DNA of 64,000 bases from Blastocatellia bacterium (GTDB taxonomy: Bacteria; Acidobacteriota; Blastocatellia; RBC074). The stretch lies in NCBI GenBank assembly GCA_038211695.1, contig JBBQVH010000022.1, positions 1,602 through 65,601 of the forward strand, written 5' to 3'. Numbering within the stretch: the first letter of the stretch is position 1; every line of letters begins with the position of its first letter. Both the position numbers and the translations under genes were made by a program. The notes under the pieces are model-generated. The model searched no databases, was not told the DNA's origin, and worked only from the letters and a program-made list of their open reading frames with translations. This document shows positions 8,809 through 39,300 of the stretch, piece by piece.

Positions 8809-8841
8809 CAGTTTTTTTCCATTATAGACATCAAGAAAAAG

Positions 8842-21099: not shown

Positions 21100-22071
21100 T
21101 CATTGCTGAACCGCGGGGCGCTGACAACGCGCCTCGACGCCATTGCCGCCGTATTCGGCCCAAATCTCTTTTGCGCCCAGACCTTCCAGCGTCGCGCGAA
21201 TCTGTCCGCGCGTGCGGAAGTGTTTGAACCAATCGGTCAGCGAATCGTGAGTGTCCAGCAGCGCCCATTCCCGTTGCAATTCGTCGGTCAATCCCGGAAA
21301 CGCCCGGTAATAACAAAGCACGGGCGAAACGCGGCTGAGCACCATTTGCGCCGGATGGAACGACCGCGCGGCTTTGTGCAGCGGCAGAAAGACATCCACC
21401 AGACGCTCCGTCCATTTCAGCCCCTGGTCCGGCGGCATCCGGCGTAGTACTTTCCGAAAGAGCCTCGCGGACTTCGTGTAATAGGAAAGGCTGTGCGTGT
21501 AATGATCAAAGATCAGCCAGCCACCGGGTTTGACTTGGTTATAGAGTGCGGCAATGGTTTCTTCAGGAGAGGGTGTGTGCTGCACCACGCCCAGACAGAG
21601 CACGACATCGAATTGTCGTGGCGCAAAAGGCAATTTCAAGATGTCGGCTTGGGCGATGCGGTGCGCACCATTTTGCGGGAAATTGTCCTGATTGGCTTCG
21701 ACGGCTTCGCTTAGATCAACCGACGTAACGCGCGCGCCGCGATCAAGCAGCACCTCAGTAAAGCGGCCCGCGCCGCAACCGGCTTCAAGAACGTATTTCC
21801 CTGGCAAGTGATCCCATAATTCATCGCCAAAGCATCTGGCCAGGCGATCCCTGGAAATCGGCACGCCTGAATGCGAGTCCAGTTGCGTCAACCGGTACCG
21901 GTTCCATTGCAGGCCGAAGGCCGCCGTGTAACTGGAATTCGGCACGAATCGGGGGATGCCTTTACGGCTTGCGTACGAACACCCGTCGGGGCAAACGAAA
22001 TCGCCATTTCGATCCACCAGTGTCTGCTGATGCGCTGGGCATACCCACGCGGGCCAGGGGGTCTCTGTCAC
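21100..22071 (-). CDS. Class I SAM-dependent methyltransferase with N-terminal Cys-rich (zinc-ribbon-like) segment
   Basis: Motif I VLEAGCGAGRFTEVL. N-terminal CPAH...CPDGC. GTG start. Confidence 0.85.
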   Translation of the reverse strand: MTETPWPAWVCPAHQQTLVDRNGDFVCPDGCSYASRKGIPRFVPNSSYTAAFGLQWNRYRLTQLDSHSGVPISRDRLARCFGDELWDHLPGKYVLEAGCGAGRFTEVLLDRGARVTSVDLSEAVEANQDNFPQNGAHRIAQADILKLPFAPRQFDVVLCLGVVQHTPSPEETIAALYNQVKPGGWLIFDHYTHSLSYYTKSARLFRKVLRRMPPDQGLKWTERLVDVFLPLHKAARSFHPAQMVLSRVSPVLCYYRAFPGLTDELQREWALLDTHDSLTDWFKHFRTRGQIRATLEGLGAKEIWAEYGGNGVEARCQRPAVQQ

Positions 22072-22177: not shown

Positions 22178-23445
22178 TCATTGCGTTGCGGTCGGCACGA
22201 TCTGTGCGGAGGTGGAAGGCGTTGGCTGCAAGCGCCAGTCGACATCGGGGCTGAGCATGGCCTTTCCGTGATGTTTGAACTCGCCGTGGACTTCGACGAT
22301 GGCGCGTTCCGACATCACCCTGCCAGAAGACGAAGAAGACGAATCGGCATTCAGCACGATGAACTTGAAGTAAGCCGTATAGACGCCTGGCGCCATCCAC
22401 AGGGCGGGCAGGTCCAGTTCCAGCCGGTAAACGCCGTCAATCAGCTCCGCGCCGATGTCATTGCCGTTGATACGGCTGTGGACAACCGTGTTGCCGGTGA
22501 AATCTTCGATGATGAAATACATCGAAGGATTGCGAACCTGTTGCCCGGCCACCGGCAACGTCACTTTGAACGGTTCGCCCGAAACGATGGCGTTGCCCGC
22601 GCGGCTGTGAATCTGCACTTGCCCGACGACGAACGGCTTGGCACCGGCTTCAACGACGATGGGTTTTTCTTCGACCAGTTTCAGGTACCGGCCAATGCAT
22701 TCCGCCGAACCGCCTTGAAAAGCGACGTGTCCGGCGTCCAGCAAAATGCCGCTCTGACACAGTTCTTTCACCGCGCTCATGTTGTGGCTGACAAAAACCA
22801 CCGTGCGGCCCTCTCTGGCCACTTCGCTCATCTTGCCCAGACACTTCTTTTGAAACGCGGCGTCGCCGACGGCCAGCACCTCATCCACGAACAGAATCTC
22901 CGACTCCAGATTTGCGGCGACGGCGAAAGCCAGCCGCAGGTACATCCCCGATGAATAGCGTTTGACGGGCGTGTCAATAAACTTTTCGACTTCGGCGAAG
23001 GCGACAATCTCATCGAATTTGCGCGTGATCTCCTCCCGGTGCATGCCCAGAATCGCCCCATTCAAAAAGATGTTTTCGCGCCCGGTCAGTTCCTGGTGAA
23101 AGCCCGTGCCGACTTCCAACAGCGAACGCACGCGGCCCTGAATGTCAGCATATCCGGTGGTCGGTTCGGTAATGCGCGACAGGACTTTCAGCAGCGTGCT
23201 TTTGCCCGCGCCGTTGCGTCCGATGACACCGACGGCTTCGCCGCGTGGAACCTCAAACGAAACATCGCGCAGCGCCCAGAACGTCCCTGCCTCCGGCTTC
23301 GCCGCCTTCTTTCCGAAAGAACGAACGGCGCGCAATGGCGCTGCCAGAATATGCGCGATGGAATCGCGCATGGTTTTATAACTTTCCTGTTGTTGGCCGA
23401 TCTGGTACTGCTTGCCCAGTCCAACCACTTTGATCGCTGTGTTTG

Positions 23446-23449
<4 letters not shown>
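22178..23449 (-). CDS. wzt: Polysaccharide/O-antigen ABC exporter ATP-binding protein with C-terminal extension (Wzt-like)
   Basis: Walker A GRNGAGKST, signature YSSGM, Walker B ILFVDEVLAVGD, plus a ~190-aa beta-rich C-terminal domain. Start set at ATG 23449 (ATGA overlap with the upstream stop). The track start is 23512. Confidence 0.85.
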
Positions 23450-25209
<1,760 letters not shown>

Positions 25210-25227: not shown

Positions 25228-25947
25228 TTAAATGTTTCCGGTTGGTTTGCCACTTGGTCTTTTGGATAAAAGCGTTTCTGCGAGTTGCCAATCTTCCGGC
25301 GTATCAATATTGGCGCTGTGAGCAGGGTCTAGCGGAAGGCCTTTGAAGCGGCTTCCATAAAAACTGTTGCCTTCTATCAAAACATTTCGCCGCACGACGT
25401 AAACAGAGCCTTCGCGGTGAAACGCTGGCGGCAGACTTTGGCGGCGCGGAATCGGCACGTCTTCACCGGTGCTCAATTTCAGCAAGCCGCTTTCGTCCTG
25501 GAAGTAAACCCAATGCGGATTGTATTCGGCAGGCACGGGCAAGATGGTGGCGACGGCGTCAGCGTCGCTCGATTCCAGCAGTTCGATGCAGGCGTCAATA
25601 TCTTCGCTGCGGCGCAGCGGATTGGTTGGTTGCAGCAGACACAATGCGTCGAAGTGCTCGCCCGCTTCTTCCAGCATTCGCACGGCGTGTTGCGCCACGG
25701 GTAAGGTTGGCGTTGAGTCCAGCGCCAATTCCGCCGGGCGCAGAAAGGGAACGTCCAATCCGCAGGCACGTCCGATGGCAGCGATCTCGTCATCGTCCGT
25801 GCTTAGAATCACGCGCGACAATCGTTTGCTGTTCAGGGCCGCTTCCGCCGTGTAAGCCAGCAGTGGTTTGCCGCACAGCAGCTTGATGTTTTTGCGCGGC
25901 ACGCCTTTCGATCCGCCGCGCGCTGGAATCAATCCTAAAACTCTCAT
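25228..25947 (-). CDS. neuA: Acylneuraminate (nonulosonate) cytidylyltransferase
   Basis: MRVLGLIPARGGSKGVPRKNIKLLCGKPLL N-terminal signature. ATG 25947 overlaps the upstream stop (ATGA). The Arg-rich 102-aa extension in the track ORF is discarded. Confidence 0.85.
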   Translation of the reverse strand: MRVLGLIPARGGSKGVPRKNIKLLCGKPLLAYTAEAALNSKRLSRVILSTDDDEIAAIGRACGLDVPFLRPAELALDSTPTLPVAQHAVRMLEEAGEHFDALCLLQPTNPLRRSEDIDACIELLESSDADAVATILPVPAEYNPHWVYFQDESGLLKLSTGEDVPIPRRQSLPPAFHREGSVYVVRRNVLIEGNSFYGSRFKGLPLDPAHSANIDTPEDWQLAETLLSKRPSGKPTGNI

Positions 25948-27155
25948 TTTGCCGCTGCCGCCGCTCCTTCTTCGTAAATGTAATTCAGCCGCTTCTGCAC
26001 ATAAGGTTTGAGCGTTACCAGACCGTCGGCGATGCGCTCGGAGACATACCCATCGCCGTACAGCTTGCTTGGCGCGTAACGTCCGTGTTCCAACTCCCGG
26101 CGAATGATCGAATGGATTTGGTCGGCCACGGGCGCGGTTTGCGTAACGTGAATGTCGGTTTCGCGGCCTTCCTGCCGGTTGCCGACCAGCACGACGGGCG
26201 TGCCGAAATAGCTGGCGTCGCGGACGAAGCTGCTGGAATTGCCGATGGCGCAAGCCGCGTTGGCCAGCACTTTCAGGTAATTTTCGGGACTCAGGTTGGT
26301 AATTGTCCGCAGCCAGTCGGGTTTGTGGTGATCGCGGAAGACGCGAATTGCTTTGCTGATGTGATCGGCACCCGCGTCAATGTTTGGCCACAGCAGCAGT
26401 GTCGGCCAAAGCTCTGGCCTAACTTCTGGATGCTGTAAACGGTTCAGCGCTTCCAGCATCGCTTCCATCTGCGCGCGCGCGCCACCGAATTCAGTGGTCG
26501 TTGGATGGAAGAGCACCAGCAAGTAAGGCTTCGTCACATCAATCGGCACGCCGCCGCCCACTGTATTGACGACTTCCGGCGCGAGCGTTCGATCCAGCAG
26601 CCGCGCGATGTCTGACGACGGGCAGCCAATAGCCAGTACGTTTTCCGGCTTCTCGCCCATGCGAATCAGGTATTCCGCCGAACGTTTGGTGCTGGGGAAA
26701 TGGAAGTGCGCATACTTTGAAATCGCATGCCGCGTGCTTTCGTCAATTGAACCGGAGACCTCGCCGCCTTGAATGTGCGCGATGCAGATGTTCATAAACG
26801 CTGCGGCCAGCGCGGCTCCCAATGCTTCGTAACGGTCGCCGATAATCAACACAACATCCGGTTTCAAGCGTTGGAATTCGCTGGCGAATTCGACCACGGC
26901 AAAGCCGACGGATTTGGCCATCGTCGCGGGCGTCGAACCTTCCAGTTCGATATAAATTTCGCCGTCCACGTTGAACCCGTCACGTTTGACGACGTTGACC
27001 GGCAGGTCAAAACGCTCCAGCACCATTGTGCCTGCGGCAACAATCTGCAATTCCAGTTCAGGGCGCGCGGCAATCGCGTGCATGACTGGTTTCAATCTTC
27101 CGTAATTGGCGCGGTCAACCAACACCACACAAATTTTTCGTCGGGGTTCACTCAT
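25944..27155 (-). CDS. neuC: UDP-N-acetylglucosamine 2-epimerase (hydrolysing), NeuC-like
   Basis: GDRYEALGAALAAAFMNICIAHIQGGEVSGSIDESTRHAISKYAHFHF. ATG 27155 is preceded by GAGGAG at 6 nt. The track start (TTG 27197) is less likely. Confidence 0.85.
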   Translation of the reverse strand: MSEPRRKICVVLVDRANYGRLKPVMHAIAARPELELQIVAAGTMVLERFDLPVNVVKRDGFNVDGEIYIELEGSTPATMAKSVGFAVVEFASEFQRLKPDVVLIIGDRYEALGAALAAAFMNICIAHIQGGEVSGSIDESTRHAISKYAHFHFPSTKRSAEYLIRMGEKPENVLAIGCPSSDIARLLDRTLAPEVVNTVGGGVPIDVTKPYLLVLFHPTTTEFGGARAQMEAMLEALNRLQHPEVRPELWPTLLLWPNIDAGADHISKAIRVFRDHHKPDWLRTITNLSPENYLKVLANAACAIGNSSSFVRDASYFGTPVVLVGNRQEGRETDIHVTQTAPVADQIHSIIRRELEHGRYAPSKLYGDGYVSERIADGLVTLKPYVQKRLNYIYEEGAAAAAK

Positions 27156-27172
27156 CCGGTTCTCCTCGTCAT

Positions 27173-28135
27173 TCAAAATGCTGTCGCGTCCTTGCAATCA
27201 ATCCGGCGAATGGCAAACACGTCATCACCTACAGCGGTCGCGCCAACTTCGGTTGCAAACGAACAAGCGAAGCCAAGCCGTTGAAGTTCGCGCACCGTCG
27301 TTGCGTTGAAAGTATGCTGCTTGCCATATGGGTAAGTGAACGGCCACCGCGTTTGCGCATTCAGATTTTGCCGGATCAGCCGATGACACAAGGTTAGGTC
27401 GTCCGTCTGCGCATCATCCGTCATCGTCGCCAGCGCCTGATGTCGGTGCGAGTGGCCGCCGATTACCATTCCCGCATTTTGCATCTGCCGCGCTTCATCC
27501 CAACTCAGGTAAAGCTCGCGCGCAAACTCCGCTTCGTCACCGAGCCGTTCAACAAAAATCTCGCGCACGATTTCATCACGCAGCGCCGCATCGAGTTTGA
27601 AGTTGAACAGAAACTTGAATGCTGCGATTGCCGGCTCATCCCAGCGATAGGTGTGACGAACTTGCTCGGCGTTCATCTCCGCGATGCTTGGCAGCTCGTC
27701 GATTGTCGGAGCATCCGGCGCTTTATCACGCAGGCGTTGCATAAAAGCTTGTTGATATTCGTTGAATTCGAGCGCGGCCATCAGGAAATGATTCATATGC
27801 ACCGGTGCAACGCGATGTTCTTCCAGCGCGGAGGTGATAACGAAAAACAGTCCTTCGATTTTGCGCTCGACCAGGATCGGCATGACTTCGGCGAAGTGTT
27901 CTTTCAATCCGTCGTCAAACGTCAGCAGGCACAGATCGCGTTTTGGCCTGTAATCGCCGTGCAGGAATGCCAGCGCCGTTTCGAGCGTCGCCATTTCATA
28001 CTGTTCAGCCAACATCGCCACTTGCGTGCGAAACTCATCCGTCAGCATGCCTTTGATGCGCGGGAACCGCGTGCGCGGCAGGTCGCGCACGTAGTGATAC
28101 ATGACGGTGTGTAACTGATGGTTTGCGGAATTCAT
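27173..28135 (-). CDS. Polysaccharide deacetylase (NodB-homology) family protein
   Basis: MYHYV ... LLTFDDGLKEHF motif. ATG 28135 is preferred over the TTG track start at 28165. Confidence 0.75.
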   Translation of the reverse strand: MNSANHQLHTVMYHYVRDLPRTRFPRIKGMLTDEFRTQVAMLAEQYEMATLETALAFLHGDYRPKRDLCLLTFDDGLKEHFAEVMPILVERKIEGLFFVITSALEEHRVAPVHMNHFLMAALEFNEYQQAFMQRLRDKAPDAPTIDELPSIAEMNAEQVRHTYRWDEPAIAAFKFLFNFKLDAALRDEIVREIFVERLGDEAEFARELYLSWDEARQMQNAGMVIGGHSHRHQALATMTDDAQTDDLTLCHRLIRQNLNAQTRWPFTYPYGKQHTFNATTVRELQRLGFACSFATEVGATAVGDDVFAIRRIDCKDATAF

Positions 28136-28170
28136 AAAGCTAGGACTTATGCAAAAGCGGATCAAATGTG

Positions 28171-28233
28171 GCGCGAGTTGCCTACTCGCGCAGCCAATTC
28201 ATTACAGAACGGTGCGAGTAAACAACTCGCACC
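28171..28233. repeat. Two tandem short perfect hairpins in an intra-operon spacer
   Basis: GCGCGAGT-tgcct-ACTCGCGC (28171-28191) and GGTGCGAGT-aaaca-ACTCGCACC (28211-28233). Confidence 0.7.
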
Positions 28234-28258
28234 ACACTTTGCGTAAGTCCTGAAAGCG

Positions 28259-29380
28259 TTAGTTTGGGCGATCCTGATCGGCGTCCGACTTCGTCCAGTA
28301 CCAGTTGCAATCCGGGCTGGCAGTGCAGGCGGGCCTATCGCCCGCGATAAACATCGAACTCATAATCGCCGCGCTCTTGCCATCCAGCGGTTGGAATCGC
28401 GCCGGAATCGCAGCACCGTCTGCGTGCGATTCCATAGGCAGGAAATTGTTTTCGCTCAGCCAGTGGCGCGTTTCGCCGTGATACCCGTAAAAGTCCGCGC
28501 CAACCGCATCGGCTTCGAGCAGTTGTTGAAAAAAGGCCGTCAGCAATTCGCGGGCGTTGTCACGCGATGCCGGAAGGAATTCAACCATGCGGCCAACGCG
28601 ATCAAAAAACTCTTCGCCTGCTTCGGTTTTGCGGCGAATCGTCTCCAGCCGCCAGACCAGCAAACCATCGTCGAGCGTAACGAAGCGATAATCGAAGCGC
28701 GGATGCTGACGATAGCGCCAGTTCAAATACGCCGCGTTGCGGGCCGCGCCGATGGTTGTCCGGGCGATGCGTGGCCAGCAGGTTTGATCCCATTCATCAG
28801 GCAAATCATTGATCGCTTCGGTGGATGTTTCGTTGATCGCGGGCAATGTGAATGCCGCGGCCAATGCCAGCGCCCGTTCGCGCGGCCAATCGGGATGTGT
28901 CAGATGAATCAACTCCGCCATTCGATCCACGGCGTGCGGCAGCGTCACAACGTGGCGCGGAATGTTTTCCAGCAAGCGCCAGCGCAACACTTGATAGATG
29001 GGCGCGGTCTTCGGGTTAATGCCGAAGGCAATGGTCGCCTGGTATGGCGCGCGCCGCATGGTGTTCAAAAGCTGCACGGCCAATGATCCGCGCCGGTTGT
29101 CCGGCTTGAGCATGTACTGCGCCAGCCACAGCGCGGGCGCAGTTTGTCCAAACTGATTCAGTTCGAATGGAATGCTGCCCAGAATGCCGATGACTTCGCC
29201 GCTCTCTTCGGCCAGCGCGAATGAATATCCGTCGCGATCCCACAAATCGCTGCGTCCATACGTCCAATCGAACAGCTTCCGGTCGCGCACGTAGATGTGA
29301 TCCGCCGCCCAGTAATCAGCCAGAAAGCGGCTGATGCGCGGATATTCATCAAAGCTGGCGTAACGCAGTTCAACAGGCAT
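28259..29380 (-). CDS. Hypothetical protein (possible acyltransferase-fold, function unknown)
   Basis: 373-aa ORF with an ATG start 4 nt after the ACP stop, inside the acyl/nonulosonate module. I can name no diagnostic motif. Confidence 0.6.
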   Translation of the reverse strand: MPVELRYASFDEYPRISRFLADYWAADHIYVRDRKLFDWTYGRSDLWDRDGYSFALAEESGEVIGILGSIPFELNQFGQTAPALWLAQYMLKPDNRRGSLAVQLLNTMRRAPYQATIAFGINPKTAPIYQVLRWRLLENIPRHVVTLPHAVDRMAELIHLTHPDWPRERALALAAAFTLPAINETSTEAINDLPDEWDQTCWPRIARTTIGAARNAAYLNWRYRQHPRFDYRFVTLDDGLLVWRLETIRRKTEAGEEFFDRVGRMVEFLPASRDNARELLTAFFQQLLEADAVGADFYGYHGETRHWLSENNFLPMESHADGAAIPARFQPLDGKSAAIMSSMFIAGDRPACTASPDCNWYWTKSDADQDRPN

Positions 29381-29383
29381 TGC

Positions 29384-29638
29384 TTAGATAGTGGGAATCG
29401 CCGCCAGCTTCTCTTCGATCAGGTCAACGATCAGTTCGACTGAAAGCATTTGTTCAATCTCTTCCGGTGAGAACTGCAAGTCGAACTCTTTTTCCAACGC
29501 CAGCACGACGTTCAAATGTTGCAGTGAATCCCAGCCTTCAATGTTGTCTGGTGACGATGAAGTGGAGATTTGATCGGGCGAGAGACTGAAAACGTCCGCC
29601 ACAATGTCGCGGACGCGTTCAAACAGTAAGCTGTTCAA
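29384..29638 (-). CDS. Acyl carrier protein
   Basis: GWDSLQHLNVVLALEKEF contains the DSL phosphopantetheine-attachment serine. About 84 aa if the in-frame TTG 29638 is the start (the track ORF extends to 29701 and overlaps the FkbH-like gene). Confidence 0.8.
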   Translation of the reverse strand: MNSLLFERVRDIVADVFSLSPDQISTSSSPDNIEGWDSLQHLNVVLALEKEFDLQFSPEEIEQMLSVELIVDLIEEKLAAIPTI

Positions 29639-31583
29639 GATGCAATGACTCCTTATTCGTTTGGGCGCTGACTTGCAGTTTGATCCATTCAGGACAGGCA
29701 AGCTGTGATTGCTGAAGCTGAAGGTCTACCGAATACAATTTGCCGTCGCCGGTCTCTTCAATAACTTGAAAAGCGTGATCGCGGTAGAAGCTGTTTGCCG
29801 GTGCGTTCTTCTTGGTCGGCAGAAACCAGCCTTGCAATTGCCGCGCGCCGTTGTCTCGCGCTTCTTCAGCAAGAAAGCTGAGCAGCGCAGTTTCGACCGT
29901 GCGGCCAATGACGCGGCAGCTCAACAGAAACGCGTCAATTTCCCAAACGTTGCGCTCGGCTTTCGCAATCATCACGCCAACCAGGCCGTGATCGCCGAAG
30001 CGGTCTTTCACGCTGGCGGTATAAACGCGCCATTCGCTGTTGCCTGCGATCTCGGCGATTCGCTGCTCGCTGTAACGCCGCGTGGTCAAGTTGAACTGAT
30101 TGGTCTTCTGCGTCAGTTGCGCCGTGCGAGCCAGCGTCATCGGCGTAACCGGTTCAATCATGACTTCCTGTTCCAGCGAACGGTAAAAGTCTTCGATGGA
30201 AGTGGCACCGATTTGCAGTTCGGCGCGCTGGCGCTGTTCGGCGTAATGGCGTCCACGTTCGCGGTCTTCGGCGGAAAGCGTCAGTCGTTCAAACACGGCG
30301 CAGTTGCGCAAGGTTGCGGCATAATCTTTTGAATCTTTCGGCAATTCAATGACGGTGACTTCGGGCAGTTCCTGCCGCGCGCGCGCGCATTCCGCCGGGT
30401 TGTCGTCAATGAAAGCAATCGCATCCAAACCGATGTTCAGTTCCGTGGCGATCTCGCGCAGATTTTGCGCCTTGTCCTGCCAGTTGATGCGTAGCGCGGC
30501 GAAATGGGCAGGGCGCAGAATCATTCCCGGATGCGTTTCGATGGCGGTCAGCGCGTCGGCTTCGTTGTTCTTGCTGTTGACGGCCAGGATGATGCCGCGC
30601 CGGTGCAGGTCCAGCATCGCCCGTTGCAGCGATTGAAAGTCCGCGCCGGGATATTCAGCGCCCAACTTGATGCCTTCCATTCCGTCTTCGCCGATGACGC
30701 CGCCCCACAGCGTGTTGTCCAAATCCGTGACCAACGCTTTGCAAATTCTGCCGGTCAGCGGGTGCAGGAAGCGCAGCCATTCGCCAGTCAATTCGGTGAA
30801 GGCGTCCACAGTCATCGGCAATCGCATCGTTAACCAGCGGCGTTCGTCGTGCCAGCGCGAGCGCCCGAAGCGCGCCACCACCGCGTCGTAATCCAGAAAG
30901 TAGACGCCGCGATGTTCGCCCGCCAGCCGCTGCAATTCGCGGTTGATGGTTTGAATGGCCGTGGCTTGGCTGTGCGCGGTTTGTGAATCCAGCGCACCTT
31001 GCGCAGGGAAGAGAGGTGTCTCCAACCCGTGAAGGATCAGATGCGCCTGACTGTTTTTGCCGAAGGCTTCAATCCAGTCATTGAAACTTGCAGTGATGCG
31101 GTTGACTTCGGCGTTGACGTCGTCAGGTGAAAGCGAGGTGAACGAATGCCAAAGCTCCGGCGCGATGTCGCGCGTTTGAATCGCCAGTACCACAACGTCC
31201 GGCGAGAAACGATAAAGCTTGCTGTCGGGATTGAAAATCTCCTGCGGGTAGGCATTGAAATCGCCAACCTGCACGGTCAGATCAATGCCGCTGGCAAAGG
31301 CCCCGGCGCGCAGCAGCAGCGCCAACGGTTCCACCGTGAACGAACGCAGAATCGCCAACCGGCACAGCGTCATCGGCAATCGCTCGCGCAGCCTTTCGAA
31401 CCGCGCGATCACGAAGTTGGCCGTCGCGGGGGAAGGCTGCTGTTGCCACAACGCAATCAGCGCATCGCGCGCCGCAAACCATTCTTCGCGAGTGATGTAG
31501 TTTTCAATCTGTTGCCGTTGGTTTCGCGGATCAGGCATTTTGAGGTTTGAGATTCGGAATTTGGGATTTGGCTTTTCGATCAC
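29619..31583 (-). CDS. FkbH-like HAD-superfamily (subfamily IIIC) protein with C-terminal GNAT-like region
   Basis: VTDLDNTLWGGVIGEDG (HAD motif I in an FkbH/IIIC context). The GTG start at 31583 overlaps the upstream stop. The alternative ATG 31538 would leave the heptamer tract non-coding. Confidence 0.8.
   Translation of the reverse strand: MIEKPNPKFRISNLKMPDPRNQRQQIENYITREEWFAARDALIALWQQQPSPATANFVIARFERLRERLPMTLCRLAILRSFTVEPLALLLRAGAFASGIDLTVQVGDFNAYPQEIFNPDSKLYRFSPDVVVLAIQTRDIAPELWHSFTSLSPDDVNAEVNRITASFNDWIEAFGKNSQAHLILHGLETPLFPAQGALDSQTAHSQATAIQTINRELQRLAGEHRGVYFLDYDAVVARFGRSRWHDERRWLTMRLPMTVDAFTELTGEWLRFLHPLTGRICKALVTDLDNTLWGGVIGEDGMEGIKLGAEYPGADFQSLQRAMLDLHRRGIILAVNSKNNEADALTAIETHPGMILRPAHFAALRINWQDKAQNLREIATELNIGLDAIAFIDDNPAECARARQELPEVTVIELPKDSKDYAATLRNCAVFERLTLSAEDRERGRHYAEQRQRAELQIGATSIEDFYRSLEQEVMIEPVTPMTLARTAQLTQKTNQFNLTTRRYSEQRIAEIAGNSEWRVYTASVKDRFGDHGLVGVMIAKAERNVWEIDAFLLSCRVIGRTVETALLSFLAEEARDNGARQLQGWFLPTKKNAPANSFYRDHAFQVIEETGDGKLYSVDLQLQQSQLACPEWIKLQVSAQTNKESLHLEQLTV
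31541..31575. repeat. Degenerate 7-nt tandem repeat (5 units, TGRGATT-like; decayed GCGGATT family)
   Basis: TGAGGTT TGAGATT CGGAATT TGGGATT TGGCTTT. Confidence 0.6.
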
Positions 31584-32788
31584 ATCGTCACGCCGCCGCA
31601 GACAGGAATGTCCGCGCCGGTAATGAAGTCCGCCGCATCAGAGCAAAGAAAGGCGACAGTGCGCGCGACGTCTTCGGGCGTGGCCAGACGGCGTAACGGA
31701 GTCTGCATCGCCTGTACTTTGCGCAGCCGTTCGGGCACGTCTGCGATCAGATCGGTTTCGGTCATGCCAGGAGAAACCAGATTGACGCGGATGCCTTTCG
31801 GCCCAAGTTCGACGGCCAGGGCGCGGGTGAATGCCTGAAGCGCGGCTTTGGCGGTGACGTAGCCGGCCAGATTTGCGGGCGGCGTGTTCCAGGCATAGAT
31901 CGAACCGATGTTGATGATCCGGCCTGATTGCGCTGCGAGCATTGCGGGCAAAGCGGCTTGCACGCAGTTGAAGGCGCCGCGCACCTGCGTGTCGAAATGC
32001 ATTTGCATCTCAGCCCATGAAGTTTCAGCAAACGGGCGCGCCTGAATCGCGCCGCTGGCGTTGTTGATCAGCACATCCACCGGCTTGCCAAAATGACTGG
32101 CCGCGCCATCCACCATTCGCTTGACGGCATCGGCGTCGGTCACGTCGGCTTGAATGGCGATGGCTTGGCCGCCGCCGGATTCGATGGCGCGCTGCACTTC
32201 ATTTGCGGCGGTTTCGTTTTTGATGAAGTTGATGACGACGCGGCAACCCGCCGCCGCCAGCCCGCGCGCGATGGCCGCGCCGATGCCGCGCGAACCACCG
32301 GTGACCAGGGCCACTCGTTCGCTGAGCGGCAGATCGCGAATCTGTTTTTTCTCTTCCAGTACCATAACGGTTCCCTCGCCTTCCAGGACGGTTTGGCCGT
32401 TTTGATTGACGGCGCTGACTTCAATGTTGAGCGTCCGCGTGCCTTCGGATTTATGCGTGACTTTCAGCGTGATCGAAATTTCGTCGCCGATGAAGACGGG
32501 TGAGCGCCAGCGGAAATTCTGCTGCGCCCACAGCGCACCCGGCCCCGGCAGATGCATTCCGACCAGCGTCGAAACGTAGCTGCCGATGATCATTCCGTGC
32601 GCGACGCGGCGCTGGAAGCTGGTGCGGCGCGCAAACTCCGCGTCCATATGCAGCGGATTGTAATCGCCCGAAAGTCTAGCGAAGGCATCCACGTCTTCGG
32701 CCAGAATCTTTTTGACCAGCCGGGCTTCGTCGCCAACGGTAATCTTGTCGAAGCTGGCGATCTGAATTGTCGGTTGCGCTGAAGTCAT
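31580..32788 (-). CDS. MaoC-like (hot-dog) dehydratase fused to short-chain dehydrogenase/reductase (FabG-like)
   Basis: N-terminal hot-dog segment (DYNPLHMD...) and C-terminal VALVTGGSRGIGAAIA Rossmann/SDR. ATG at 32788 (TTG alternative at 32797). Confidence 0.85.
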   Translation of the reverse strand: MTSAQPTIQIASFDKITVGDEARLVKKILAEDVDAFARLSGDYNPLHMDAEFARRTSFQRRVAHGMIIGSYVSTLVGMHLPGPGALWAQQNFRWRSPVFIGDEISITLKVTHKSEGTRTLNIEVSAVNQNGQTVLEGEGTVMVLEEKKQIRDLPLSERVALVTGGSRGIGAAIARGLAAAGCRVVINFIKNETAANEVQRAIESGGGQAIAIQADVTDADAVKRMVDGAASHFGKPVDVLINNASGAIQARPFAETSWAEMQMHFDTQVRGAFNCVQAALPAMLAAQSGRIINIGSIYAWNTPPANLAGYVTAKAALQAFTRALAVELGPKGIRVNLVSPGMTETDLIADVPERLRKVQAMQTPLRRLATPEDVARTVAFLCSDAADFITGADIPVCGGVTM

Positions 32789-32793
32789 TAGGT

Positions 32794-33849
32794 TCAAATC
32801 AGGTCGGATTCTTGCAGCAGGTGATCGGCGGCGACCGCGACGCGCAAGCGGCGGCCAAGCAATTCAGGCAGGCGCGCGGCGGGAATGCCTGTGCCGGGCT
32901 TTTTGAACGCCAGATCGCTTTCAGTCAGCTCCGCGCCAGCGGCCAATTCGCGGCGGGCGACAATGCTTTTGGTGAATAGTTGCCGCAGCGGATCGAGTTC
33001 CGCCGCCATCGCTTCCTTGTCAATCGGATGCGCCAGCGCTGTTTCAATGAAGCTCACACCGGCGACCAACTGCTTTAAGCCTTTGGTCGTGATTGAAGCA
33101 GGCACATCCGGGCCGAAGCATTCGCGCGAAAAGGTGACGTGGACTTCAATCAGGTTCGCGCCCAGCGTCGCCGCGCCAATCCCCGCGTAAATCGTCCCCG
33201 AATGATCGGACAAACCGACCGGGCATTGATAACGCTGGCGCAGTTGGGCGATGACGTTTAAGCCCAGCTTTTCCGGCGGGCACGGATACGCCGTCGTGCA
33301 TTGCAGAACGGCCACGGGCGCGCCGTTTTCGCGCACGCAATTGACCGCCGCATCCAGTTCATCCCATCCCGACATCCCGCTTGAAAGGATAACCAGTTTG
33401 CCCGTGCGCGCCATCTTTTCCAGCAGCGGCAGATTCGATGTTTCGCCCGCGCCAACCTTCCACGCGGGCACGCCGACACGTTCGAGCAAGTCCACCGCCT
33501 CAAACGAAAAGGCCGACGACAGAAATATCAAGCCACGTTCGCGCGCATGCTCGGCCAGCCCGTGCCATTGCTCTTCGGTGAACTCCATCCGCCGCCAGTA
33601 CTTGTAGCGGGTCGCATCTTGTTTACTGAATTTGATTCGCCAGGGTTCACCGGGCGTGCTTTCGGCGGCGGCAATGTGCGTTTGAAATTTGATGGCGTCC
33701 GCGCCCGCGTTCGCGACGGCGTCAATATAGGCGTGCGCCGTACCCAGGCTGCCATCGTGCGTTTGCGCGATCTCGGCAATGACGAGGCAATGATTCAGAA
33801 GGCGGTCAAAAATGTCTTGTTGTGCTGGCAAATCTTTTTCCTCAGCCAT
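32794..33849 (-). CDS. neuB: N-acylneuraminate (nonulosonate) synthase, NeuB family, with SAF domain
   Basis: IAEIAQTHDGSLGTAHAYIDAVANAGADAIKFQTH, plus a C-terminal SAF-like tail. Confidence 0.9.
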   Translation of the reverse strand: MAEEKDLPAQQDIFDRLLNHCLVIAEIAQTHDGSLGTAHAYIDAVANAGADAIKFQTHIAAAESTPGEPWRIKFSKQDATRYKYWRRMEFTEEQWHGLAEHARERGLIFLSSAFSFEAVDLLERVGVPAWKVGAGETSNLPLLEKMARTGKLVILSSGMSGWDELDAAVNCVRENGAPVAVLQCTTAYPCPPEKLGLNVIAQLRQRYQCPVGLSDHSGTIYAGIGAATLGANLIEVHVTFSRECFGPDVPASITTKGLKQLVAGVSFIETALAHPIDKEAMAAELDPLRQLFTKSIVARRELAAGAELTESDLAFKKPGTGIPAARLPELLGRRLRVAVAADHLLQESDLI

Positions 33850-34780
33850 GTCTGACGGCCAATGCCATTGCTTGGGCTTTGTCGGCGGGCAGGACGAGCG
33901 ATTGCGGACGCTTGAACTGCTCCGGCGCTTGCGAAGTCGGCGAGGTGAACATGCAGGTGTACATCAACCTGTCGTGAGTGCGCGCCAAACCGCCCTTGTG
34001 GTAACCAGCGGTATCGGCGAAGACGATCGTGCCTTTTTTGCCGATGCCGGCGACCCACCGTTCTCGCGGCACGATGGTGGCCATCTGATTGTCATTGGTG
34101 CGGCGGACGCCGTTTTCGACAAAGAACTCAGGCGTCCGGCGAATTGCGCCCTTGTGATGCGTGCCGGGCGCGTAGGTGAAAGGCCCCGCGCCTTCATCAA
34201 TGTCCATGAAGTAAACGAACAGTTTGAGAATCGAATGGTCTTCGCGATCACGATGCCAAAGCTGTGATTCACGGGCTTCGGTTTTGGTCGTCAGCGTGTG
34301 CCAGACGTTGTAATACCGCAGTTGTGTGTACATTCCGAAGTAGGCATTCGAGATTTGCAAAATTGGTTGCTGCAAAGCGAAGCGCGTATAAACGCCGTCA
34401 GGATCAAGGTGCGGCTGCTTTCCCAATAATTCGAAAAGGAAGGTCTTGTGGCTCGTGTTATAACTGTGGGCATTGGCGCGCTCAGTGGCGATTTGACCTG
34501 CCCAATCGTTCTCCAACTCATCAACCGCACGGCACAATTCATCAAAGCATGAAGTATTGCCGAAAAGCTTTTCGACCGAAGTGATCGCGATGCCGCTGTG
34601 GTTCAATTCATCAAGCACGCGATCAGCTTCGCCGTTGAGCGCCGGTTGAGCGTCCGGTTGATCGAATTGATAGGCCAGCGTTGATTTCAGATTGAATCCG
34701 TAACGCCATGTCGGCGTGAAGTGCCTGCCCGCGTAGGCGATCTTGCGTCGAATCAATTTGGGATAGCTTGATAATTCCAT
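33842..34780 (-). CDS. Phytanoyl-CoA dioxygenase (PhyH)-like Fe(II)/2-oxoglutarate oxygenase
   Basis: QLWHRDREDH ... GPFTYAPGTHHKG (HxD...H facial-triad pattern). Confidence 0.65.
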   Translation of the reverse strand: MELSSYPKLIRRKIAYAGRHFTPTWRYGFNLKSTLAYQFDQPDAQPALNGEADRVLDELNHSGIAITSVEKLFGNTSCFDELCRAVDELENDWAGQIATERANAHSYNTSHKTFLFELLGKQPHLDPDGVYTRFALQQPILQISNAYFGMYTQLRYYNVWHTLTTKTEARESQLWHRDREDHSILKLFVYFMDIDEGAGPFTYAPGTHHKGAIRRTPEFFVENGVRRTNDNQMATIVPRERWVAGIGKKGTIVFADTAGYHKGGLARTHDRLMYTCMFTSPTSQAPEQFKRPQSLVLPADKAQAMALAVRHG

Positions 34781-34804: not shown

Positions 34805-35734
34805 CTAGACGATGTCCGCGAAGGTTTTTTCCATCCGGCGAAAGTAAAACGCGCCGCCCGCCAAAATCAATACGGAGACGAGAGAAGAAACAATCAGTAA
34901 TTTGCCTGGGGCCGAATTCGTGCCGAGCAATGCCCAACGAAACCCTTCGACCACGCCCGCCATTGGATTCAAGCCATAGACCGTGCGCCAGGGTTCGCGG
35001 ATGGCACTGCTGGGATAAGCGATCGGCGTAGCCAGCATCCAGAACTGAGCCAAAAACGGTACGACGTAACGCACGTCACGGTACTGCACATTCAGCGCTG
35101 ACAGCCACAAGCCCACGCCGAGCGATGCGACAATCGTCAGCAATAAGAAAAACGGCAGATAGATAATTTGCCATGACGGAACGATGCCGTAATAGAGCAT
35201 CATCAACATCAGCAGCCCGAATGCCAGCAGCACATCAATGATGCCCGAAAACACCGTTGCCAGTGGGATCGTCAAGCGCGGGAAGTAGACCTTGGTGATC
35301 AGATTGGAACTGCCGACCAGACTGTTGGAGGATTGCGTCAAGCCGTTGGCAAAAAACGTCCACGGTACGAGCGCAGCAAAACAGAAGATCGGGCGTGGCA
35401 GGCCGTCCGATGAAATTTTCCCCAGGCTGCTGATAAAGGTGAAAACCAGCATGGTTAGAAATGGCTGCAAGATCGCCCAGACCACGCCCAAGGCGGTCTG
35501 TTTGTAGCGTACCTTGATGTCGCGCCAGGTCAGAAAGTAGAGCAGTTCGCGGTATTCCCACAGTTCGCGCAGTCTGAGGGAAACCCAGCCGCGCGATGGT
35601 TCGATGCGATGTATGGGAAGCTCTTCCATTGAATTGATAACCTTGTGTGTGGCGACCTTGCGGTCGGCTTGAAGCTCGGCCTGAAGCCCTGATTGAGTGG
35701 AAACGGATGTTTTGACTTCGCTGATTGAGTTCAC
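34805..35734 (-). CDS. wzm: ABC-2 type polysaccharide export permease (Wzm-like)
   Basis: LWEYRELLYFLTWRDIKVRYKQTALGVVWAILQPFL signature and 6 TM segments. The GTG track start is 35734. ATG 35629 would give a typical 274 aa. Confidence 0.85.
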   Translation of the reverse strand: MNSISEVKTSVSTQSGLQAELQADRKVATHKVINSMEELPIHRIEPSRGWVSLRLRELWEYRELLYFLTWRDIKVRYKQTALGVVWAILQPFLTMLVFTFISSLGKISSDGLPRPIFCFAALVPWTFFANGLTQSSNSLVGSSNLITKVYFPRLTIPLATVFSGIIDVLLAFGLLMLMMLYYGIVPSWQIIYLPFFLLLTIVASLGVGLWLSALNVQYRDVRYVVPFLAQFWMLATPIAYPSSAIREPWRTVYGLNPMAGVVEGFRWALLGTNSAPGKLLIVSSLVSVLILAGGAFYFRRMEKTFADIV

Positions 35735-36316: not shown

Positions 36317-39300
36317 TTATTGCGACACGTAGTTGCTACGCGACAGTTTGGCGCTTGTGCCATTTGGATTGGTCACGACAGCATCGCGATTGCCAAACGG
36401 GGTCTTTTGCGTCGTTTTGGCGTTCAGCATAATGGTGTCTTCCTCAATGCTGACAACGGTGACGGTGATTTGTGATCCGCCCTGGCAGAAGGAAGTGCAA
36501 TCAAAGCGCACCTGCGTCCCCTGAGTGAAACCAGTGCCTGTGACAGTCATCGTGATCGTGTTAAATGTCGAAAGCTTGGCCGGGCTGGCGCTGATGATGG
36601 TCAGCGGACGCGGCAGCACTTCGATGGATTGGGGCGCGGTCGTGCTGACTCCGCCTTTGCCGTCAGAGACGGTCAGCGTGATCGAGTGAATGCCGACCGG
36701 CAGCGTGGCGTTGACGATTGCGCCTTCTGCAATGACGGCATCGCCATCTTTCCAAACATAGCTCAGCGGGTCCAGGTCAGGGTCGCTGGATTGCGAACCG
36801 TTCAGTTGAACCGTTGCGCCTTGCTTGCTGGTGGCTTGAGCAGTTGCATCCAACGGCGCCATTCGGGCGGTTGGCGCATTATTGGTGTTGCCGCCGCCGC
36901 CGCCGCCGCCGCCATCACCCGGGCCAGGGCCGCCGCCAGGGCCATTACCACTGCCCGTGTCGTCATTTTCGACATCGCTGAGTTGAATGCGGAAGTACAG
37001 GGTGTAATACGAACCACCTTTACCATCCGTCGCGACAATGCGGACGTTGGTTGCCACAGCCTGATCGCCTTGATGCGGCGTCAGGATCAGCTTCGCCTGA
37101 CGCGCGACCGGGTCAATTGCGTCCAGCCGCGCGTAGGCGGGCGCGCCTTGCAGCGCGAAGATGACAGGGTCGTTGTCAGCGTCCGTCGCCTGCAGCGTAA
37201 TCTCGCGCTGTTTATCCACGATCACGTATTGATCGTTCAGATTGGCCGTGACGGGCAGTTTATTGCCTGCCGTGCCGCCCGTCTGCGGGAAGTTGCCACC
37301 GCCTTTTTTGACCTCAACCTCCATCGTCGCCTTTGTTTCGTTGCCTGCGTTGTCACGCGCGGTGAAGATGACCGTGGTTTTGCCAATCGGGAAAAGGTAG
37401 CTTGGCAACACCGAAGATTTGACTGGCACGTTGCCGTCCACAGCGTCGTAGGCCACGGGCAGCGGATACGTCACTGTTGAGCCAACGTTCGATGCCGTGG
37501 TCTTGCTGATTTTCGAAGGGATGCCGCTCATCACCGGCGCTGTCGAATCGAAGACTTCCATCAGCGTGAACCTGGGTTCACTCGATAGCGCACTGCCATC
37601 TGTGACGATCAGTTTTAGGGTATGAGAGCCAATGCCCAGACGGTAGTCCGAGATCGGAGCGCTCGAAATGAGCGTTTCGCCGTCGTACCACTTGTAGGTC
37701 AGCGGATCGCCCTCATCGGGATCGGTCGAACTGCGGCCATCCAGACGAACAATTGTGCCGGTAATGCCGCGCGCTTCAATGCCATAGTTGATCGTTTCAA
37801 AATTGGCCGTTGGCGCGTGGTTGTTCGGATTGGTGGACGCCGTTTTCAGCAGATAACTGTCCGTCGTCGCCAGAATGTGCAGCGTCACGCCGCCTTTCAA
37901 TCCACCCGTCCAATTCGAACTAACGGTTTGGGCGGTGAACGGAGTGTTCGGCAGGTTGGTTGCCCAAGCGAAGATCGGCGTGCCGGGCGTCAGCTTCATC
38001 CAGCCACGATGGCCTTTCAGAATCGTGCTGGTAATTGGTTGTGCGTTGATCGAAGGCTTCAAATTCCCGACCCGGACTTCCAATCCGCCGGCGGTTGCTG
38101 ACGCGGCTGCCAATAGTTCGTCAATGACCGTCGAGACCACAGAGCCGCGTGTGTTCACCGGATCAAGTATGTTCGCCGGGGGACGCGCGTAACCGAGCAT
38201 CGTCGTATTGTCCTGCTGACTGGGCAGACCAGCGATCGCCAGCGTCGCGGGCAGGCGGTCGTAGTTTTGGTCGTCGAACTTGAGATTTGAAGTTTGAACG
38301 TCCTCGTTGCGTGGCACTGTGCCGGGCGCGTTCTTGGCCACTGCCAGTGCGTTGTATCCGAAGGATGCGCCGTTTTGCTCTTTAACCCGCGCGCTGCCGA
38401 TCAGGAAGTTGAAATTGAGCGGCAGTGCGCGCGCGTCAATCGCCATCGCGAAGAGCCAGCCTTTCTGATTCGCCGCAAAATCCTGCGGATTGATTGTCGT
38501 CGTTTGATTCGGGAAGAGGCTGATGATCGTGTCGGTCATCAGCGTTGAGTCGGCCAGGCCGGTGAAAAAGACCCGCACGCGGACTTTCTGGGTCGGGTGC
38601 GTATTGGTGATGACAATCTGCGAATTGCCGAAGACTCCACTGGTGAAGCGTGAAAAGATGAGTGCGCTGCCCGCCTTCATCTCGCTGGCGCCAAGCGAAC
38701 CGGCAGGCGCATCCGGCAGATTCGAAGTCGCCACATTATTGGCCGGAATTGGCGGCGTGCTGATCGGCACATTCATGCTGAACGAATCCAATCGGCTGAG
38801 CACCTGCATATGGCGCGCGCTGTTATGTGCTTCGCCAAGGCCATCAGTGAGGCTGACGCCGAGCAGGGGAACAGGCGTGCCTTCGACTTGCGCGGCGAAA
38901 CTGCCCCAGCCTGCGCGCTCCGGTGTGATGAAACTGTTCAACGTAGGAACCGTCCAGATGTTGCTGACCTGAGCGTTTAAGCCACAGACTGTATCTACGA
39001 TTTGAGGAAATGGTCTGCCACTTTGATCATACGCAATCGCGGTCACCCTCAATGCCTGCGAAGCATTGCCGCCTAAATCCGCCAGAGGACTGAAAAGCGA
39101 GACATCCGTGCGAACGGCGCTCTGCGGTGTCGGACCAAGAGTCGGATCTTGATTCTGAATCTGATCCAGTGCAATCGCCTGCGGCAGCCGGTCATAATCC
39201 GTATCGTTAAACTTGATCGCCGCGCTGATCGCGCCTTCGGCCACAGTGACAGCACCCCCTGTGCGTTTGGCCACGCCGACCGCGTTGTAGCTCGCTTCGT

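Follow-up and report, generated by a model that had tools for sequence, protein, structure and literature searches.

A putative N-acyl exchange cassette between neuB and neuC in a surface glycan locus of a Blastocatellia bacterium

Introduction

The N-acyl groups of nonulosonates, such as glyceroyl, lactoyl and hydroxybutyryl, influence how the immune system, phages and lectins recognise these sugars. Lactoyl- and glyceryl-substituted prokaryotic nonulosonates exist (PMC8157484), and the genes that install such N-acyl groups are largely unknown, as has been stated for N-glyceroyl (PMC5378307). For example, Campylobacter jejuni 11168 makes 5-N-(2,3-di-O-methylglyceroyl) pseudaminic acid (PMC3068675; bioRxiv 10.64898/2026.04.20.719630). 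The flagellin-glycosylation locus of C. jejuni NCTC 11168 holds the FkbH-domain gene Cj1302 (PMC7099621), and for Cj1295 a role in cleaving off the N5-acetyl group ahead of re-acylation has been suggested (PMC3068675). Pse5Am7Gra of Tannerella forsythia is a 7-N-glyceroyl pseudaminic acid, and the genes behind its N-glyceroyl group were called unknown and "a major challenge" in 2017 (PMC5378307). In this study, we analysed 64,000 nucleotides of a Blastocatellia bacterium (GCA_038211695.1, contig JBBQVH010000022.1, positions 1,602 to 65,601), referred to as the window, in which a neuB/neuC/neuA module is interrupted by five genes. These encode a dehydratase-ketoreductase fusion (DH-KR), an FkbH-like protein, an acyl carrier protein (ACP), a protein of 373 aa and a deacetylase of family CE4. 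We propose that they may exchange the N-acetyl group of a nonulosonate for a glycerate-derived acyl group.

Related enzymes have been described in other pathways. In the methoxymalonyl-ACP pathway (FkbG-K) and in tetronate FkbH/ACP pairs, a discrete ACP receives from FkbH a glyceryl unit that stems from 1,3-bisphosphoglycerate (PMC7489565, PMC3679948). Bifunctional DH-KR proteins convert glyceryl-S-ACP to lactyl-S-ACP in the biosynthesis of FR901464 and lankacidin, according to PMC4765723 (citing He et al. 2014) and PMC6162330. Burkholderia sp. FERM BP-3421 is the producer of FR901464 (PMC5640593). The lipopolysaccharide locus of Legionella pneumophila serogroup 1 combines wzm/wzt with neuA/neuB/neuC and N-acyl-modifying genes, and its O-chain is polylegionaminic acid (PMC3766260).

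Results

A five-gene cassette between neuB and neuC

Nine genes on the minus strand, from 34780 to 25228, encode in transcription order a PhyH-like dioxygenase, NeuB, a MaoC-SDR fusion (SDR, short-chain dehydrogenase/reductase), FkbH, ACP, the 373-aa protein, CE4, NeuC and NeuA. All nine open reading frames (ORFs) were present, and checking their domains with Pfam and NCBIfam bore out the gene order and domain calls of a preliminary description of this DNA:

33842..34780, minus strand: PhyH-family Fe(II)/2-oxoglutarate dioxygenase (Pfam PhyH, E 2e-5, 25.4 bits against a cutoff of 22)
32794..33849, minus strand: NeuB-family nonulosonate synthase, phosphoenolpyruvate (PEP) condensation (Pfam NeuB and SAF, E 4e-67)
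31580..32797, minus strand: MaoC-type dehydratase/SDR ketoreductase fusion, DH-KR (MaoC_dehydratas E 2e-20; adh_short E 1e-53)
29619..31583, minus strand: FkbH-like protein with FkbH_N, HAD-IIIC phosphatase and Cys-bearing C-terminal domain (TIGR01686, 318 bits against a cutoff of 146.65)
29384..29638, minus strand: ACP, 84 aa from TTG 29638 (ORF 29384-29701; Pfam PP-binding and NCBIfam ACP models)
28259..29380, minus strand: protein of 373 aa, tandem double-GNAT by its predicted fold (Acetyltransf_9, 23 bits, below the cutoff of 25)
27173..28165, minus strand: CE4 (NodB-type) metal-dependent de-N-acetylase (Polysacc_deac_1, E 2e-22)
25944..27155, minus strand: NeuC, hydrolysing UDP-sugar 2-epimerase (ORF 25944-27197; Epimerase_2 and TIGR03568, 341 bits against a cutoff of 236)
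25228..25947, minus strand: NeuA, CMP-nonulosonate synthetase (ORF 25228-26253; Pfam CTP_transf_3)

The likely start codons are ATG 27155 for NeuC, ATG 25947 for NeuA, TTG 29638 for ACP, with a Shine-Dalgarno-like AAGGAG on its 5' side, and either ATG 31538 or GTG 31583 for FkbH; the candidates for CE4 are 28165, 28135 and 28102. Several overlaps of stop and start codons had been described before. Those of PhyH/NeuB, FkbH/ACP and NeuC/NeuA stand, and those of NeuB/DH-KR and DH-KR/FkbH hinge on the choice of start.

An alignment of the 373-aa protein yielded 61 loci from species-representative genomes, all of which are metagenome-assembled genomes (MAGs). Most of these loci belong to Acidobacteriota (Bryobacterales, Terriglobia, Blastocatellia and Acidiferrales), and a few to Binatia, Nitrospiraceae, Entotheonellaceae and Phycisphaerales. 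The gene content of the relatives was determined by tblastn with the window proteins, and the 43 loci with enough flanking DNA were counted. The gene of the 373-aa protein was flanked by neuB and neuC homologues in 40 of the 43 loci, and the full set of NeuB, DH-KR, FkbH, ACP, GNAT, CE4 and NeuC occurred in the order of the window in 22. FkbH was present without DH-KR in seven loci, DH-KR without detectable FkbH in five, and neither of them in one. The arrangement is not due to chance.

The locus L071 is orthologous to the window cluster (identities of 69% for Wzm, 66% for PhyH, 76% for NeuB, 78% for NeuC, 70% for NeuA and 68% for the AsnB-type protein), and in it neuB, neuC and neuA are contiguous and none of the five genes that run from DH-KR to the deacetylase is present. 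The five genes, from the MaoC-SDR fusion through the deacetylase, are one unit that was inserted or lost precisely at the neuB-neuC junction, and the description of the neu module as interrupted holds. The deacetylase is part of this unit because L071 lacks it together with the acyl genes.

The genes of the double-GNAT protein and CE4 were kept as a pair when the acyl supply differed, being accompanied by FkbH only in seven loci and by FabG and FabH in L053; the pair also occurs without neu genes in L051 and L057. The invariant core of the cassette is GNAT plus CE4, and the acyl-supply unit looks exchangeable. In L053 (8223-12149, from a Phycisphaerales MAG), a FabG-like SDR, a FabH-like β-ketoacyl-ACP synthase III, a homologue of the 373-aa protein and a CE4 enzyme are encoded with no neu genes nearby, and this cassette would fit an exchange to N-(3-hydroxybutyryl) on some amino sugar. 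In L018 (11183-16351) and L047, both of Terriglobia/Paludibaculum, the same acyl cassette lies beside a different neu set that resembles the legionaminic acid (Leg) type: the NeuC is nearer LegG, the NeuA has an N-terminal CBS pair, there is an extra GT2 gene, and the identity to the window proteins is 33-38%.

FkbH genes were also seen in other glycan clusters. L001 (9554-13309) and L003 (9467-14105) encode an FkbH that is 60% identical to that of the window, an ACP, a Glyoxalase_4/VOC protein and a different protein of 370 aa, for which no similarity to the window GNAT was detectable. Both clusters are of the exopolysaccharide (EPS) type: they also encode sulfotransferases, heparinase II/III-like proteins and AsnB, and neu genes are missing within 10 kb. 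They apparently represent a second, distinct FkbH-based cassette for glycan acylation. Among the loci without DH-KR, a glyoxalase-type gene was present in L048 only. In L069 (pSymB of S. meliloti 2011, 622216-641937), an FkbH-like protein is 32% identical to that of the window over 89% coverage, and many S. meliloti strains encode it on pSymB. Its gene has a glyoxalase-like ORF upstream and a Wzt-like ATPase about 7 kb downstream; the record is unannotated here.

Acyl supply

A tblastn search of a plasmid collection with the window FkbH matched, among others, the polyketide synthase (PKS) gene Bsp3421_RS01755 on plasmid p1 of Burkholderia sp. FERM BP-3421, whose product begins with the order MaoC_dehydratas, adh_short, FkbH, PP-binding and ketosynthase (KS). 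In BLASTP, the window DH-KR was 30% identical to the N-terminus of this FR901464 PKS over 325 aa spanning both domains (E 2e-20), and the window FkbH was 33% identical to its FkbH region over 498 aa (E 4e-68). The two FkbH sequences have the motifs D-x-D-x-T and FLLSCRV(I/L)GRTVE in common, with DLDNT (287-291) and LLSC556RVIGR of the window aligning with DCDNT and LLSCRVLGR of the PKS. Judged by these alignments, the DH-KR/FkbH/ACP set is a free-standing, collinear homologue of the lactyl-ACP loading module. The preliminary description had considered glyceroyl- or hydroxybutyryl-type acyl units. We believe instead that the acyl donor of the window is probably lactyl, because the order and homology of DH-KR, FkbH and ACP match a module that is reported to make lactyl-ACP. 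For the relatives that have FkbH only, glyceroyl is the best prediction. A 3-hydroxybutyryl unit, which does fit L053, was rejected for the window, as its cluster has no KS.

The window DH-KR has the hydratase-2 motif FARLSGDYNPLHMDAEFA in its dehydratase half and YxxxK (Y313, K317) in its ketoreductase half. The dehydratase motif of the window reads GDYNPLH, and 44 of 45 orthologues retain D45/H50. Y313 and K317 are intact in the window and in the Blastocatellia-type orthologues, and the Tyr is changed to Phe in most orthologues of Bryobacterales/Terriglobia (L012-L065). The predicted reaction of the window DH-KR leads from glyceryl-ACP via pyruvoyl-ACP to lactyl-ACP. Loci with the Phe-type ketoreductase carry a gene for a D-2-hydroxyacid dehydrogenase (PGDH/GhrB-like) directly after neuA, and the window has no such gene. 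This enzyme might take over the 2-keto reduction in the Phe-type loci. The correlation is imperfect: L018 and L047 have the Phe and no dehydrogenase gene, and loci without DH-KR still carry the gene.

The window FkbH scored 67 bits with the HAD-IIIC model (cutoff 35.75), and D287, D289, T291 and C556 are invariant in 49 orthologues. Its predicted function is the transfer of a glyceryl unit from 1,3-bisphosphoglycerate to the ACP, with Cys556 presumably acting as the acyl carrier as in OzmB-type enzymes. A search of the PDB with FkbH returned only an uncharacterised protein of Bacteroides fragilis (3slr). In the ACP, Ser42 of the motif W-D-S-L is invariant in 62 orthologues; its gene overlaps the stop codon of FkbH, and the two genes are adjacent in almost all relatives. 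The C-terminus of FkbH had earlier been called GNAT-like and considered as a candidate for the sugar acyltransferase. This role was rejected, since the conserved Cys-bearing region, including FLLSCRV(I/L)GRTVE, is common to the PKS loading module, and we read this region from its sequence as the canonical Cys-bearing loading domain.

Transfer step

The AlphaFold2 (AF2) model of the 373-aa protein (pLDDT 85.7, pTM 0.87) has two GNAT domains in tandem. Foldseek matched it to Eis (3sxn), N-myristoyltransferases and the Bacillus anthracis acetyltransferase 3n7z at E values of about 1e-10 and probability 1.0, with moderate TM scores of 0.44-0.58, and these structural matches are all amine N-acyltransferases. 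The family is well conserved, with at least 450 homologues and an invariant C-terminal WYWTKSDxDQDRPN, and in the relatives its gene always adjoins those of ACP and CE4. The double-GNAT protein is the likely transferase, which would hand the ACP-bound acyl group over to the freed amine. The earlier suggestion that this protein may be an acyltransferase gains plausibility from the modelled tandem fold, its Pfam match being below threshold.

In the CE4 protein, the residues of TFDD and HxHxH (D84, D85, H238, H240 and H242) are invariant in 50 orthologues. Inspection of its N-terminus by eye gave no obvious hydrophobic stretch resembling a signal peptide; CE4 is probably cytoplasmic, and a NodB-like role fits because a signal peptide is not evident. 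The deacetylase was gained or lost together with the acyl genes, and in every context seen GNAT and deacetylase form the invariant core. We therefore consider that CE4 may make the amine that the GNAT acylates, because the pair persists as the acyl supply varies, and this is the strongest comparative argument that we have. Both observations support the order of deacetylation and re-acylation that was suggested before.

NeuB, NeuC and NeuA

Whether the sugar is of the neuraminic acid (Neu) or the Leg type was judged from bit scores against solved structures, with L018 as internal control. NeuC scored 238 bits with the epimerase domain of human GNE and 169 bits with LegG of Acinetobacter baumannii, whereas the order was reversed for the divergent NeuC of L018 (215 bits for LegG and 196 bits for GNE). 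The model TIGR03568 also matched this Leg-like epimerase of L018 with 392 bits, which means that it does not separate Neu from Leg. The best PDB match of NeuB was Neisseria meningitidis NeuB (183 bits, with 121 bits for PseI) among references that included no LegI. NeuB reached 310.7 bits with TIGR03569 and 216 bits with the PseI model. The best PDB matches of NeuA were CMP-Neu5Ac synthetases (6ifd, 9ftb and 1eyr).

No DegT-type aminotransferase was found among the scanned window ORFs of at least 300 aa, a set that left out the 968-aa ORF 59575-62481 and some antisense ORFs. In the window, L066, L067 and L071, NeuC, NeuB and NeuA occur without a dehydratase or aminotransferase in the cluster, and NeuC, NeuB and NeuA alone are a complete pathway only for Neu5Ac. 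The SDR encoded at 5155-6159 was considered as LegB, which is unsupported (179 bits against a cutoff of 475 with the LegB model).

PhyH-like oxygenase

In the PhyH-like protein, H176, D178, H261 and R271 are invariant in 20 homologues. The top Foldseek matches of its AF2 model (pLDDT 85) were the 2-oxoglutarate oxygenases proline hydroxylase H11, ColD, KanJ, EctD and SnoN. The oxygenase had been listed among the genes interrupting the neu module. Its gene lies upstream of neuB, however, and it is present in the cassette-less L071, absent from most cassette-bearing relatives, and found in L070 beside wzt and transferases with no neu genes nearby. A function within the acyl module, for example as hydroxylase of the acyl group, was rejected for these reasons, and the dioxygenase is an accessory of the Blastocatellia-type cluster outside the acyl cassette. 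In L071 (9001-10731), the PhyH-like gene is directly followed by that of a further PhyH-like paralogue of 272 aa, which is distant (24% identical).

The surrounding glycan cluster

The nine genes belong to one long co-directional polysaccharide cluster on the minus strand, from 35734 to about 4091, and they are bracketed by the two halves of an exporter, Wzm and Wzt. The gene content points to a surface glycan that depends on an ABC transporter, and the named database matches fit a Blastocatellia-like source within Acidobacteriota. The following genes flank the nine:

34805..35734, minus strand: Wzm, permease (ABC-2 type) of the polysaccharide ABC exporter, encoded by the first gene of the cluster (Pfam ABC2_membrane, E 1e-21)
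23446..25209, minus strand: AsnB-type glutamine amidotransferase (Pfam Asn_synthase and GATase_7; TIGR01536, 377 bits)
22178..23512, minus strand: Wzt, ATPase of the polysaccharide ABC exporter, with C-terminal extension (ABC_tran; NCBIfam TagH and galactan Wzt models)
21100..22071, minus strand: S-adenosylmethionine (SAM)-dependent methyltransferase (Methyltransf_11, E 1e-21)
19576-21057 and 18155-19579, minus strand: two paralogous glycosyltransferases (NF046086, BFO_1060 family, 52 and 45 bits, cutoff 200)

The position of Wzm is kept in the relatives (57-86% identity), and the Wzt orthologue of L071 has a weak Wzt_C match. The matches of the two paralogous glycosyltransferases to TIGR04396 and Glyphos_transf are also weak, and their homologues follow wzt in the relatives. 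They are distant from the BFO_1060 family and may be regarded as candidate nonulosonate transferases or polymerases. The methyltransferase is possibly a chain-terminating enzyme or one that O-methylates a sugar or acyl group. Like the dioxygenase, the AsnB-like amidotransferase at 23446-25209 is part of the surrounding cluster and lies outside the cassette; its orthologues are 60-88% identical, it follows neuA even in L071, and the amidation of a carboxylate is our guess for its function.

Farther downstream, several GT2/GT4 enzymes, a Wzy_C-like membrane protein, an AMP-ligase-like protein and two further AsnB paralogues are encoded. Three AsnB-type paralogues (6916-8847, 10093-12018 and 23446-25209) in one glycan cluster suggest several carboxylate amidations in the glycan; their match to the XrtA/PEP-CTERM amidotransferase model is below threshold. 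The AMP-ligase-like protein (12030-14929) and the methyltransferase have weak matches to the DVU_1553 and DVU_1556 family models. The Wzy_C/O-antigen-ligase-like membrane protein lies inside a cluster that is otherwise of the ABC-transporter type. Beyond the glycan cluster, at 36317-39868, 43239-47849 and 50782-54413, lie genes for large proteins of secreted type with PKD/HYR and NHL/TIG repeats (1183 and 1536 aa), together with an ECF sigma factor gene whose stop codon runs into the start codon of a Ser/Thr kinase-TPR gene.

Discussion

Proposed mechanism

In this study, we propose, at a probability of about 45%, that the five genes are an N-acyl exchange cassette inside the neu pathway, leading to a CMP-activated N-lactyl nonulosonate and an exported glycan. 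We infer the mechanism as a whole from homology and synteny. FkbH would take 1,3-bisphosphoglycerate, dephosphorylate it, hold the glycerate on Cys556 and load it onto the adjacent ACP. The MaoC half of DH-KR would then eliminate the 3-OH to give enolpyruvoyl- or pyruvoyl-ACP, and the SDR half would reduce the 2-keto group to give lactyl-ACP. The cytoplasmic CE4 would N-deacetylate an intermediate of the pathway, for which UDP-GlcNAc or ManNAc is the simplest choice and the finished sugar a possible one, and the double-GNAT would move the lactyl group from ACP to the freed amine. NeuC, NeuB and NeuA would carry the N-lactyl sugar to the CMP-activated N-lactyl nonulosonate, which the BFO_1060-like transferases would attach to the glycan for export by Wzm/Wzt. 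The product would more likely be 5-N-lactyl-neuraminic acid than a sugar with a Leg-type backbone, and to our knowledge 5-N-lactyl-neuraminic acid is not known from nature.

Several points weigh against this proposal. All relatives of the locus are MAGs. The 30% identity of DH-KR to the characterised PKS DH-KR is modest, and the window dehydratase is a single MaoC domain, whereas that of the PKS is a double hot-dog. NeuB falls below the trusted cutoff of TIGR03569, the N-acetylneuraminate synthase model (399.65 bits). GNAT enzymes normally use acyl-CoA, and it is the gene adjacency that leads us to acyl-ACP as the donor here. CE4 enzymes mostly act on polymers or oligomers, and our assignment of the CE4 substrate is a guess. 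FkbH as such is not specific to nonulosonates, because FkbH-ACP cassettes with 60% identity occur in EPS clusters without neu genes. Finally, at least 23 of the 43 relatives carry, immediately upstream of wzm, genes for DegT, a 640-aa PglF-type dehydratase and a small Bac_transf, and no separate N-acetyltransferase was seen in L065, the one DegT/PglF cluster with its genes listed. These relatives would fit the acylation of a 4-amino sugar instead.

Other readings of the locus

The last point bears directly on the backbone. In a Leg-type pathway, PglF and DegT would be encoded elsewhere in the genome, the GNAT would acylate the 4-amine in place of PglD/LegH, NeuC/NeuB/NeuA would correspond to LegG/LegI/LegF, and the product would be 7-N-lactyl (or 7-N-glyceroyl) legionaminic acid. 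The DegT/PglF/Bac_transf trio, with PglF and no DegT upstream of wzm in 10 further relatives, is in keeping with this pathway, as are the missing LbH-type acetyltransferase in L065, the occurrence of the same cassette beside Leg-like NeuC/NeuA/NeuB in L018 and L047, and the 7-N-glyceroyl pseudaminic acid of T. forsythia, which indicates that N7 can carry such a group (PMC5378307). We consider this pathway unlikely for the window all the same. Neither a dehydratase nor an aminotransferase is encoded in the clusters of the window, L066, L067 and L071, the window NeuC is nearer GNE than LegG by 69 bits, opposite to the L018 control, and the strictly co-inherited deacetylase would be left without a role. 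A membrane-anchored PglF of the 640-aa type beside a small Bac_transf is moreover typical of primer-sugar synthesis and not of Leg pathways. The trio looks like a primer-sugar unit, yet it supplies the 4-amino sugar that a Leg pathway needs. The preliminary description had concluded from the lack of DegT that the sugar may be of the Neu type; the lack of DegT holds among the scanned ORFs, and the conclusion is weaker than was stated in view of the relatives with DegT and PglF. On balance, we lean towards a Neu-type rather than a Leg-type backbone.

The exchange could also follow the same logic with another acyl group, namely glyceroyl, if DH-KR were inactive on glyceryl-ACP or did otherwise, pyruvoyl, or a hydroxyacyl group unrelated to glycerate. 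Seven relatives have FkbH and no DH-KR, so that glyceroyl is expected there, five have DH-KR and no detectable FkbH, the catalytic Tyr of the ketoreductase is Phe in most Bryobacterales/Terriglobia orthologues, and the low identity to the PKS DH-KR would leave room for a different reaction. In the window, however, the hydratase motif and YxxxK are intact, the gene order equals that of the lactyl-forming loading module, and there is no KS to build a C4 unit, and we regard a different acyl group as improbable for this locus. Still less probable, in our opinion, is that the cassette acts on another target, such as the finished polymer or a residue of GlcNAc or another amino sugar of the same glycan (the primer sugar, for instance), with the place of the cassette between neuB and neuC being a matter of operon packing. 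The GNAT and CE4 pairs without neu genes in L053, L051 and L057, the FkbH-ACP cassettes of the sulfotransferase/heparinase-type EPS clusters and the classical action of CE4 enzymes on polymers and oligomers would all agree with such a target. It is harder to reconcile with a cassette that lies between neuB and neuC in about 40 species of several classes, including at least three phyla besides Acidobacteriota, with the insertion or loss exactly at this junction relative to L071, and with a deacetylase that has no obvious signal peptide. The third gene of the L001/L003 cassettes, being unlike the window GNAT, speaks for a different system there.

Significance

If the N-lactyl proposal is extended to the relatives, a modular acyl swap can be imagined, which we put forward tentatively and with some doubt. 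The CE4 and double-GNAT enzymes would be its invariant part, FkbH would give glyceroyl, FkbH with DH-KR would give lactyl, and FabH with FabG would give 3-hydroxybutyryl; it would be the first genetically defined route to glycerate-derived N-acyl nonulosonates, here with 5-N-lactyl-neuraminic acid on an ABC-exported glycan widespread in soil Acidobacteriota. The locus offers a concrete five-gene hypothesis and probably the first testable genetic basis for N-lactyl-type bacterial sialic acids. Each step can be assayed by standard methods, and the relatives without the cassette, with FkbH only and with FkbH plus DH-KR form a natural comparison set. A starter module of polyketide style (FkbH/DH-KR/ACP) would thereby be reused in glycan biosynthesis. 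Acidobacteriota are abundant in soil, and little is known of the chemistry of their envelope; the locus is also a pointer to a conserved sialic-acid-like polymer on their surface that still awaits characterisation. If the proposal is true, the enzymes could be used for the enzymatic synthesis of N-acyl-modified sialic acids.

Comparison with known systems

In the literature searched, we found no published description of FkbH/DH-KR/ACP/GNAT/CE4 combined with NeuCBA and Wzm/Wzt. The search for FkbH together with nonulosonic or pseudaminic acids returned only the FlaGrab paper on C. jejuni, and that for nonulosonic acids of Acidobacteria returned nothing relevant. A paper on chlorinated lactylates (PMC7923214) had no bearing on the chemistry of FkbH. 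In overall architecture, the window resembles the O-antigen locus of L. pneumophila serogroup 1, which is likewise ABC-transporter-dependent and centred on neuABC. In L. pneumophila, however, the backbone is known to be Leg, the substituents are acetimidoyl, N-methyl and O-acetyl groups installed by PtmG/PtmH-like enzymes and Lag-1, and the FkbH/ACP/GNAT/CE4 cassette is not described. The sugar of T. forsythia is similar in being an N-acyl nonulosonate of the glycerate type, and the transferases of the window weakly match the BFO_1060 family named after this species. The likeness concerns the sugar, and T. forsythia differs in having a pseudaminic acid (Pse) backbone that is substituted at N7.

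The nearest biological precedent is the locus of C. jejuni 11168, likened here by its description, which is a nonulosonate locus with an FkbH-domain gene, ACP genes and a glycerate-derived N-acyl group. It differs in being a Pse/Leg system for the glycosylation of flagellin and not for a glycan exported by an ABC transporter. Cj1295, the deacetylase proposed there, resembles aminopeptidases and not CE4 enzymes, no DH-KR is reported, and the roles of Cj1302 and the ACPs are putative. The deacetylation and re-acylation logic also has a counterpart in NodB/NodA/NodF and LpxC/LpxD, in which the amine of a sugar is uncovered by a deacetylase, in the case of NodB a cytoplasmic CE4, and then receives a new acyl group, through an acyltransferase, from an acyl-ACP that is either dedicated or housekeeping. 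The acyltransferases NodA and LpxD have folds other than GNAT, the acyl groups are fatty acyl and not C3, and the acceptors are a chitooligosaccharide and UDP-3-O-acyl-GlcN. With these systems at hand, the view that the enzyme logic of the locus has no precedent can no longer be held.

For the acyl supply, the methoxymalonyl and tetronate pathways share with the window an FkbH that is paired with a discrete ACP. They continue with FkbK/FkbI-type dehydrogenases and an O-methyltransferase, or with tetronate-forming enzymes, and the product feeds a PKS and not a sugar. The same domain set in the same order is found in the loading module of the FR901464/spliceostatin PKS (DH*-KR*-FkbH/GAT-ACP), to which the lankacidin starter enzymes are related. 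The FR901464 module is part of a megasynthase, whereas the window has three separate proteins (DH-KR, FkbH and ACP), with a single hot-dog dehydratase and about 30% identity. A KS follows in the PKS only; in the window, the acyl group presumably goes to the GNAT and an amino sugar. The parts of the locus, namely FkbH/ACP, the lactyl-forming type of DH-KR, CE4, GNAT, NeuCBA and Wzm/Wzt, are all of known kinds, and it is their combination that appears to be new.

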